Of a stretch of 61,176 nucleotides of DNA, positions 25,714 through 27,948 are shown one piece after another (positions within the stretch are counted from its first letter, which is position 1; the number at the start of each line of letters is the position of its first letter). The stretch comes from Pseudomonadota bacterium (GTDB taxonomy: Archaea; Thermoplasmatota; SW-10-69-26; JACQPN01; JAJPHT01). The stretch lies in NCBI GenBank assembly GCA_021325135.1, contig JAJPHT010000010.1, positions 1 to 61,176 of the forward strand, written 5' to 3'. The notes below the pieces were generated by a model. The model was not told the DNA's origin. It did not search any database and was given only the letters and a program-made list of their open reading frames with translations. Position numbers and translations under genes: made by a program.

Positions 25714-26352
<639 letters not shown>

Positions 26353-26464
26353 GGCGCCCCAAGCGACGGCCCGCGGATCAACGCTGCCCGACCGCAGACC
26401 CAAATGCTTATCCGGGAAACGATGATTGGCCGCTCCTGCCCCGGCAACGGGGACGCGCCACACC

Positions 26465-26557
26465 AGCGGGGTGGGGTAGCCAGGAAACGCTGGCCGACTT
26501 CGGTCGGCCGCGCCTCGGTCGCTTCGCTCCCTCGGTCCCGACGGGCTCATAACCCGT
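26465..26557 (+). ncRNA. Interrupted partial copy of tRNA-iMet (nt 1-45) with 48-nt hairpin insert; pseudo-tRNA or structured leader
   Basis: 26465-26487 and 26536-26557 are identical to the first 45 nt of the tRNA at 26592; insert 26488-26535; no T-arm or 3' acceptor strand. Confidence 0.6.
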
Positions 26558-26591
26558 GCATCGTCCCGGGGAACGGATGATATCACCCAAC

Positions 26592-26666
26592 AGCGGGGTG
26601 GGGTAGCCAGGAAATCCCGACGGGCTCATAACCCGTAGACCGGTTGTTCAAATCAACCCCCCGCTA
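26592..26666 (+). tRNA. tRNA-Met initiator (CAT)
   Basis: A1-U72 acceptor AGCGGGG/CCCCGCT, three G-C pairs closing the anticodon stem, CAT at 26627-26629, T-arm GGTTG-TTCAAAT-CAACC; CCA not encoded. Confidence 0.96.
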
Positions 26667-26856
26667 TCTCCGTAGTGATCTCGAATCAGACACCGTCGTT
26701 CTGGCGGTGTTGTGAGGCGAGCACGGGACAAGTTCGTCCCCGTGCGCGCGCCCGAGCTTGTTCATCAGATCCGGCGCATATTCACTTCTATTTAGCGACT
26801 GCAAAGTAGCCCCCTTCAAAAATATTTCATATCTTAGTAGTGCGTTCTTGGGGCCG

Positions 26857-27948
26857 ATGACGAAGCCGCGTGGCACGAAGCCCGACACGGCGAAGGGGTT
26901 CGAGCCTGCCTACCAGCTCACGCGCGGGCACCGCGACCTCGCGGAGGCCGTCGCGCGCCTCGAGGGGCAGATCGCGCGCGCGGACGTCCACGCGGACTTC
27001 ATGGAGCGCCTCCGGCAGCGCGCGGCTACGTTGAACACCCACGCGACCACGAGCATCGAGGGCAACCCGCTCTCGCGCGAGGACGTCGAGAAGATCGCCG
27101 AGACGCCCACGAAGAAGTCGAAGGAGCCCGAAGAGGTCGAGATCCGGCTCCACCTCAAGTTCTTCGACCAGCTCACGAAGAAGCCGCCGAAGGGTGCGCT
27201 GACGCTCGACGAAATCCGCGACACGCACGCCCGGCTCCTCACCGGAGTCCTGCCCTCCGGCGTGGGCGATTGGAAGACGAAGCAGAACGTCATCGTGGAC
27301 GAAGTAGGCAAGGAAGTCTTCTACCCCACGCCCCTCGGGCGTGTCGAGCCCGAGCTCCAGGCGCTCAACGCCTGGTTCGACGAGAGCACGCTCCCCACGC
27401 TGGTCCGCGTCGCGATCTGGGCCCACGAGTTCGAGTGCATCCACCCCTTCCGTGACGGCAACGGGCGCACGGGGCGCGCGCTCACACATCGGCTCCTCGC
27501 GACGCATGGCTTCCCCGGCATGGCCTACGTCGCCCTCGACGCGCAGTTCCTCGCGGACCGCAAGGGGTACATGGCTGCGCTCGCCGCCGTCGAGACGACG
27601 GCCTGGGACCACGCTCCCTGGGTCGCCTACTTCCTCGACAAGCTGCGCGCAGCCTACGAGGAGAGCATCGAGGTCCTGCAGGGCTTCCGCGGAGCCGTGG
27701 AGAGCTTCGACGGCATCAAGCGCGCCATCCTCCAATGGGTCGTCCGGCGCGGAGGTGGCTCTTTCACTCGCGCCGACTTCCTCGCCGCGCCTGAGCGGAA
27801 GGACTACCACGAGGTCAGCGTGAGCAACGCCCTGTCCTCCCTCGTCGAGCAGGGCTTCCTCACCGCGAAGGGCGAGCGGCGCGGCCGCCGCTACATCCCC
27901 GGGCCGCGCTTCAGCGAGCTCGCGGAGACGGCGACCGACGCGGAGTAG
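26857..27948 (+). CDS. Fic family protein with C-terminal winged helix
   Basis: Fic motif HPFRDGNGRTGR; N-terminal TTSIEGN inhibitory-helix motif; AT-rich upstream region. Confidence 0.92.
   Translation: MTKPRGTKPDTAKGFEPAYQLTRGHRDLAEAVARLEGQIARADVHADFMERLRQRAATLNTHATTSIEGNPLSREDVEKIAETPTKKSKEPEEVEIRLHLKFFDQLTKKPPKGALTLDEIRDTHARLLTGVLPSGVGDWKTKQNVIVDEVGKEVFYPTPLGRVEPELQALNAWFDESTLPTLVRVAIWAHEFECIHPFRDGNGRTGRALTHRLLATHGFPGMAYVALDAQFLADRKGYMAALAAVETTAWDHAPWVAYFLDKLRAAYEESIEVLQGFRGAVESFDGIKRAILQWVVRRGGGSFTRADFLAAPERKDYHEVSVSNALSSLVEQGFLTAKGERRGRRYIPGPRFSELAETATDAE

Follow-up and report, generated by a model that had tools for sequence, protein, structure and literature searches.

Why should the sole initiator tRNA gene found in a genome be preceded by a broken copy of its own first half? 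The gene lies in the window analysed here (the whole stretch of 61,176 nt; contig C2 of G000), part of a 3.77-Mb genome of 72% GC whose relatives with named records are Thermoplasmatota and whose best-matching sequencing run is a soil metagenome. The gene, tRNA-iMet(CAT), is intact and intron-less (26592-26666, plus strand; called by ARAGORN, and by Rfam RF00005 at 58.6 bits). Its first 45 nt recur identically at 26465-26557, as the initial annotation had it: nt 1-23 in the native position at 26465-26487, nt 24-45 (the 3' strand of the D-stem and the anticodon arm) at 26536-26557, both on the plus strand. The 48-nt insert also lies where it was first placed, at tRNA position 21/22 in the Sprinzl numbering, just after nt 23 (26488-26535, with no strand assigned). 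The two pieces of the copy match the tRNA in register, with BLAST E values of 4e-6 and 6e-5 against the whole genome, so the interrupted copy is not a product of chance.

Upstream of the copy, again as annotated, stands CTTATCC (26407-26413), part of a BRE/TATA-like box native to the tRNA-iMet locus (26400-26413, plus strand) and presumably its promoter. A similar box is found about 60-115 nt 5' of the first tRNA base in G001, G002, G003, G004 and G007, whether or not the insertion is present. The promoter-proximal stretch and leader that follow (26414-26464, plus strand) are native as well: the leader at the empty site of G002, which directly abuts the intact tRNA, aligns with the G000 stretch preceding the interrupted copy. 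The GCAA hairpin at 26439-26452, noted earlier as a structure ahead of the copy, does exist, but as a part of this native leader, and the sister species G002 has not kept it. Behind the copy is a 34-nt spacer (26558-26591, plus strand) with a hairpin at 26560-26581 and a weak likeness to 26412-26426; on sequence comparison it is possibly the relic of a duplicated promoter or leader. The relatedness claimed for the two upstream regions comes down to this modest likeness (p about 0.009 against random windows, in one comparison). Finally, 26464 together with 26465-26487 forms a 24-bp direct repeat of 26591-26614. The whole polymorphic unit, absent or amplified in relatives, is 127 bp and can be drawn as 26464-26590 or, equivalently, as 26488-26614 (plus strand), comprising hairpins, tRNA 24-45, spacer and tRNA 1-23.

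The worry that all this is a misassembly is set to rest because a separately assembled Logan contig (run X1), probably from the source sample, covers 26200-26900 with zero differences, and because the same layout recurs in other genomes. Matches from run X6 are confined to the tRNA body and uninformative on expression, and no RNA run covers the 127-bp unit. A search of the region against Rfam returned the tRNA only, and a scan for sigma-70 promoters and terminators, a model not suited to archaea, came back empty. Directly 3' of the tRNA is a Fic/DOC gene (PF02661; 26857-27948 of the window, plus strand) in lower-GC DNA, a stretch that is possibly an island remnant; no repeat of the 3' end of tRNA-iMet was found in the G000 genome. 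On the other side a Nudix hydrolase gene (25714 to about 26350 of the window, minus strand) diverges from the tRNA. Its reading frame extends without a stop as far as 26586, across the interrupted copy, which is probably chance at high GC.

What do relatives have at this place? In G001 and G002, of the same genus as G000, the unit is absent, and promoter box and leader run directly into the intact tRNA. In a contig from run X3, which belongs to a different study and is alike on both flanks, 26463 joins 26591 with exactly 127 bases missing, and 24 letters at the junction fit either side. Another assembly (L069) carries at least three tandem units of 128 bp. Copy number thus takes the values 0, 1 and 3 or more, G000 being single, and the locus is an insertion polymorphism.

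The spare iMet copy is split after GGAAA at the same site in G003, G004, G007 and the distant G039, and is also hit there in L069. The upstream copy in G039 matches G039's own variant of the tRNA. At every iMet locus the copied tRNA 1-23 agrees fully with the resident tRNA, and this calls for either recent origin or homogenisation. Because G002 has the element at Ile2 but not iMet, and G000 at iMet but not Ile2, separate insertions (the presumed direction of change) are favoured. The iMet spacers of G004 and G007 (L002, L003) both contain a hairpin with a GGGAGAAA loop, and the copies in these two genomes have the same two anticodon-loop bases changed, to different letters, with stems intact; from sequence, this could be an inherited, selected unit. 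Two other arrangements upstream of tRNA-iMet differ from that of G000: in G009 (L018) a mimic with both acceptor strands around an unrelated hairpin, and in G024 (L015), about 90 bases upstream, an isolated copy of nt 24-43 that lacks the 5' part.

Is the insert an intron? A snapshot of intron gain or loss, suggested at the outset, fails as stated, for the insert lacks a BHB motif. The motif sought was a 4-bp helix enclosed at the junctions by two 3-nt bulges and extended by a further helix on the intron side, and in full it appears in none of 17 elements tested. The G000 insert forms two of the four helix pairs (one of them Watson-Crick); as controls, true introns at the D-loop site of other Thermoplasmata form all four in 22 cases out of 23. 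G000 encodes a two-domain splicing endonuclease. The interrupted copy ends at nt 45 with an intact gene after it, and so is not a complete tRNA gene needing splicing. A split (trans-spliced) tRNA was considered and set aside, with no lone 3' half in G000 and no BHB.

One may still imagine that an ancestor had a spliceable intron, that an intron-less 5' part displaced it, and that it decayed in the old copy. About 22 Thermoplasmata sequences do have BHB introns at this D-loop site, in a single-copy iMet with no intact copy in the locus, and the DNA junctions of element and true intron there are identical or one base apart. But the element covariance model matches none of those introns, the insert is 92% identical to one in another tRNA, its family turns up in protein genes too, and its stems covary, unlike decay. 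Already largely refuted, the dead intron is most improbable. Judged from its sequence and structure, the 48-bp insert belongs with non-autonomous mobile elements rather than with introns. The T-loop also offers a shared site, common to the element and a relaxed-BHB insert in the tRNA-Trp of G008. That gene (L032:8170-8380) has a box C/D-like intron plus the T-loop insert, followed by two 177-bp units with a reversed element, and elsewhere (L047) a tRNA-iMet has two introns, in the D-loop and the anticodon loop.

The insert consists of two abutting hairpins. Hairpin 1 (26488-26512) has CGC, a bulged T, a 7-bp stem and a TTCG loop, the C-TTCG-G hairpin being just as first described. Hairpin 2 (26513-26535) is made of 2-bp stems, TC/TC mismatches and a TNC loop; the CCTCGGT repeat is present (26513-26519 and 26530-26536), not as the direct repeat it was taken for but as the two arms of this hairpin. 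Read on the minus strand, hairpin 2 has tandem GA pairs and a GNA triloop, both of them motifs of very stable DNA hairpins. In hairpin 1 the loop on the sense strand is often YNMG, an RNA-type loop, so the strand signal is mixed. Folding with DNA parameters, a model that leaves out sheared GA pairs, gave no strand separation. The loops may resemble those of REP sequences.

Elements of this design run from 43 to 81 bp and have no ITR; the loop of hairpin 2 is TNC in 22 of 24 and the TC/TC mismatch is present in 21. Covariation of the hairpins, proposed as a check by the initial annotation, is found (92.8% paired, against 24-47% in slid controls, 11 of the 15 pairs showing double changes), in an alignment that was fitted to the model and is biased toward pairing. 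Covariance models built from these iMet inserts match 11 of 151 phylum genomes, mainly in family f1, with a maximum of 19 copies in G008. Close copies are few in G000 (five model matches at E<0.01). The core motif of hairpin 2 occurs there 46 times, six of them no more than 200 bp from a tRNA gene (p 2e-7), and a control motif with an ANC loop occurs six times, never near a tRNA gene. The nearest sequence to the G000 insert is the one in Ile2 of G002 (0.92), with the other iMet inserts at 0.76-0.77, and the iMet insert of G003 is closest to G003's own Ser insert (0.88). Viral contigs contained no interrupted iMet copy and no element, their 41 short-pattern matches being chance. Of the three options first put forward, the dead tandem duplicate struck by a small repeat comes closest, except that this repeat belongs to a mobile family with structure, covariation and preferred sites, and that the layout recurs at many tRNAs. 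That the insert might be a repeat found elsewhere had been named by the initial annotation as telling against its candidate system, and this is so in part: the family recurs at other tRNA and non-tRNA sites.

Might the copy nonetheless serve its tRNA? In the option placed first by the annotation, a half-tRNA transcribed together with the gene would compete for the acceptor strand or act as a decoy for processing enzymes, and in this way tune tRNA-iMet maturation. The native TATA-like box does stand upstream of the interrupted copy, and five genomes, the distant G039 among them, share this insertion site in iMet. In a 2D model, which ignores tertiary and cotranscriptional folding, the upstream AGCGGGG pairs with the 3' acceptor strand with p about 0.45 and the native strand with 0.51, the two within about 1 kcal/mol; thermodynamically, competition is possible. 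It is the phylogenetic pattern that speaks against a function: the unit is missing from sister genomes and from a close relative's contig, the number of its copies goes from 0 up to at least 3, and genes for Ile2, Arg, Gly, Ser, Met and Phe bear the same design, which is thus not specific to iMet. Folding of the whole region is, moreover, weak against shuffles (z -1.67). Competition for the acceptor strand, as modelled, may be a cost of the insertion. A regulatory leader role thus looks unlikely, and I consider competition or decoying that tunes maturation very unlikely. The locus gives no evidence that initiator tRNA has a new control system.

The element occupies 21/22 in iMet and Ile2 (Ile2 in G002 and G003) and 59/60 in Arg, Gly and Ser; related variants lie at 44/45 (Met, Phe), 28/29 and 17/18, and related hairpins occur also in reverse orientation. 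Insertion is at one phosphodiester bond, with no short TSD and with flanks that rejoin exactly. In tRNAs the target is usually just after A, in or beside a loop: A precedes 16 of 18 tRNA sites (which are not independent), versus 8 of 28 other sites, and there is no fixed tetramer. A search of 401 phylum genomes for the T-loop junction pattern gave real cases only in genus g1. In all tRNA cases found, the element sits in a spare copy adjoining an intact gene. Other tRNAs with an upstream self-copy, which the initial annotation had suggested looking for, do occur: among 150 tRNA genes in four relatives, self-matches of at least 12 nt lie upstream of 20 and downstream of 39, these being script counts in which a few are neighbouring tRNAs or double-counted copies. 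Some of the upstream duplicates include 23-25 nt of native leader.

Fragments of tRNA beside a restored gene invite another explanation, that an element like pTN3, targeting the tRNA's 5' half, left the fragment and lost its body, the hairpin being a passenger. The integrases of pTN3-like elements do use the tRNA 5' half as attB (PMC8371274), the copy without its insert spans nt 1-45, tyrosine recombinases are common here (15 of 21 genomes) and often adjoin tRNA genes, and many 3'-end repeats enclose 60-130 bp behind tRNAs. But no long, integrase-bearing version was found between the iMet copy and the tRNA. The copies stop about 13-29 nt past the hairpin wherever it is placed (22 nt at iMet), which leaves no fixed crossover, and most 5'-type copies contain the hairpin insert. 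An attachment-site scar is unlikely, to my mind. The three tyrosine recombinases of G000 are all on contigs other than that of the iMet locus; two related ones (C19:31481-32626 and C26:13885-15051) have an LRGD motif and no adjacent tRNA.

Repeats behind tRNA genes form a subject of their own. Behind six tRNA genes of G000 stand 63-115 bp of hairpins together with a repeat of the gene's own 3' end (C3:12849, C5:39696, C6:17831, C34:15155, C42:17827 and C46:210570), and the downstream spacers of His and Ser are of one family, seen also in G002. In G039 (L364-L393) a conserved cassette of 100-130 bp, at times in tandem, stands behind about half of 30 tRNA genes examined; it combines an inverted T-arm copy, two hairpins, a small terminal hairpin and the tRNA 3' repeat.

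Outside tRNAs, the element is found in repeats, spacers and reading frames. It adds 17 aa in frame to argG of G001 (a clean gap in the G000 orthologue) and 15 aa in frame to a gene of G004 (absent from the G000 orthologue), in neither case with a duplication. Some insertions are into palindromes, as in tRNA loops and certain repeats; a flanking stem of at least 7 bp is present at 4 of 28 non-tRNA sites, versus 6% by chance. Only 1 of the 28 model matches outside tRNA copies has its empty junction repeated nearby. Since duplication accompanies the tRNA sites and 1 in 28 of the rest, it depends on the kind of target more than on the element. In G000 (L108, C50) and G001 (L105, C128) the element occupies roughly corresponding positions close to the end of a gene judged by eye to be DNA ligase-like. 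At a non-tRNA locus of G008 (L126:660-900, C124) an interrupted copy is followed by an intact copy, with a TATA-like box; Rfam gave no match to this locus, which is perhaps a structured RNA gene. An abundant REP-like repeat, with 138 matches to its ACGTCAGGGGG core, lies at about 18176 of the window and genome-wide and is sometimes miscalled as tRNA by ARAGORN; no RAYT for it was found in G000.

I propose that the insert is a non-autonomous mobile double-hairpin DNA element, lodged in a spare tRNA copy, and that the duplicated 5' part rebuilt the gene; this I regard as probable. The native promoter, leader and tRNA 1-45 would have taken the insertion, and the 5' part duplicated downstream would restore the gene. 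An element that cannot be spliced would let a single-copy tRNA gene survive its insertion only beside a second, intact copy. The 24-bp repeats would then permit loss or amplification of the 127-bp unit by recombination. No host function is needed. The element would move as folded single-stranded DNA, with an enzyme acting in trans, a view suggested by hairpin 2, one strand of which has DNA-type GNA triloops and tandem GA pairs, and by related hairpins in both orientations.

How might the duplicate have arisen? Ranked first, at a little less than an even chance, is rescue after the insertion, through unequal recombination with a chromosome copy that was intact, because some upstream duplicates include native leader and the G000 spacer weakly resembles the promoter-proximal stretch. 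It would need polyploidy, which is known in Euryarchaeota. Second, and a serious contender, would be a small circle bearing a tRNA fragment, integrated by a tyrosine recombinase in trans, because copies run on past the insert by a fairly constant length and units form tandem arrays. A nuclease-driven cassette, its enzyme encoded elsewhere, is the least favoured of the three, a minority view.

Searches for a mobilising enzyme identified none. HUH/Y1 transposases (TnpA/RAYT, PF01797) were found in none of 21 genomes of the class, 72-100% complete; reverse transcriptase and TnpB each in none of five. The GIY-YIG genes are UvrC-sized or lone and small, none with an element or tRNA adjacent. IS605-derived PATE or REP sequences were rejected on the first and third of these counts, and a retroelement or homing-nuclease cassette on the second and for want of a linked GIY-YIG gene. 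A MITE was rejected also: the ends of the element belong to two separate hairpins, there is no short TSD, and the flanks rejoin exactly. Bridge RNAs, TIGR, retrons, hammerheads and box C/D RNAs were also weighed as readings and dropped, their motifs or partner genes not being seen.

The iMet locus is one instance of a small mobile element found at tRNA genes throughout the lineage and apparently not yet described. What makes it useful is that a recently active, gene-less element lands where relatives have true introns, and that filled, empty and amplified alleles allow target choice to be compared. It points to the moving of 50-bp DNA in genomes with no detected HUH transposase or reverse transcriptase, and its spare tRNA copies mislead both tRNA annotation and island callers. 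The sites shared with real introns make the origin of introns testable. In Asgard archaea, neither copying nor mobile elements nor reverse transcription supplied a general way for introns to arrive (bioRxiv 10.64898/2026.10.13.758758). It is conceivable, though on balance improbable, that double hairpins, or the enzyme that places them, provide a route by which archaeal tRNA introns arrive, through structure-directed insertion at tRNA loops. If so, inserts able to form a BHB become introns in a single gene and the others persist only in spare copies.

How does the element compare with known systems? A literature search, mostly outside subscription journals, found nothing specific on this layout in prokaryotes. 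Elements with tyrosine integrases that target tRNAs (PMC8371274; 10.1101/2022.07.05.498093) likewise leave a partial tRNA direct repeat beside a restored gene, but they span kilobases, carry their integrase and leave the fragment uninterrupted. The iMet unit has the 24-bp tRNA repeat at both ends and the empty allele, and in 127 bp there is no internal integrase gene. Non-canonical BHB introns of tRNAs share the D-loop site and the T-loop site, whereas the element has no BHB, was never seen in the sole gene copy and occurs also outside RNA genes.

Among short palindromic repeats, REP/REPIN (GTAG, CGTC; PMC3733652) and the Rickettsia palindromic elements are likewise short and likewise insert in frame within genes, and hairpin 1 often contains the CGTC of the former. 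They differ in that no RAYT/TnpA is found here and in that the element is two unlike hairpins abutting both ends. SMR-A of Haloquadratum walsbyi (PMC3119063) is closer: archaeal, transposase-free, without target duplication, and of "enigmatic" mobilisation. It inserts within palindromes of other elements, and a PATE of 52 bp may move (PMC3119063). SMR-A, however, is about 110 bp, has terminal inverted repeats and targets IS605/PATE ends (PMC3119063), in contrast to 43-81 bp and no ITR; terminal-only PATEs (PMC3119063) derive from IS605, whose TnpA is absent from all 21 genomes searched here.

The tRNA-Thr(GGU) of Caldiarchaeum subterraneum (PMC3293823) has the same sequence of parts, an upstream 5' tRNA fragment, an insertion and a rebuilt tRNA, and has been proposed as a link between mobile DNA and gain of D-arm introns (PMC3293823). 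Its insertion, though, is 1,868 bp with a putative recombinase ORF, and became a new intron in a working gene (PMC3293823); the iMet unit is 127 bp, has no ORF and keeps its insert in the spare copy. In design the nearest counterparts are the repetitive hairpin-forming and double-hairpin elements of mitochondria (in fungi such as Allomyces and in sponges; PMC2800124), tiny gene-less hairpins in spacers, RNA genes and, in frame, protein genes. For those of Allomyces the accessible part of the account (PMC2800124) reports no flanking duplication and gives the mechanism as not known. They are organellar, and that part of the account links them neither with partial duplicates of tRNAs nor with the positions of introns. 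As far as this source goes, the element is an analogue and not a member of the mitochondrial type: its host is an archaeal chromosome, and the likeness seen is one of design.
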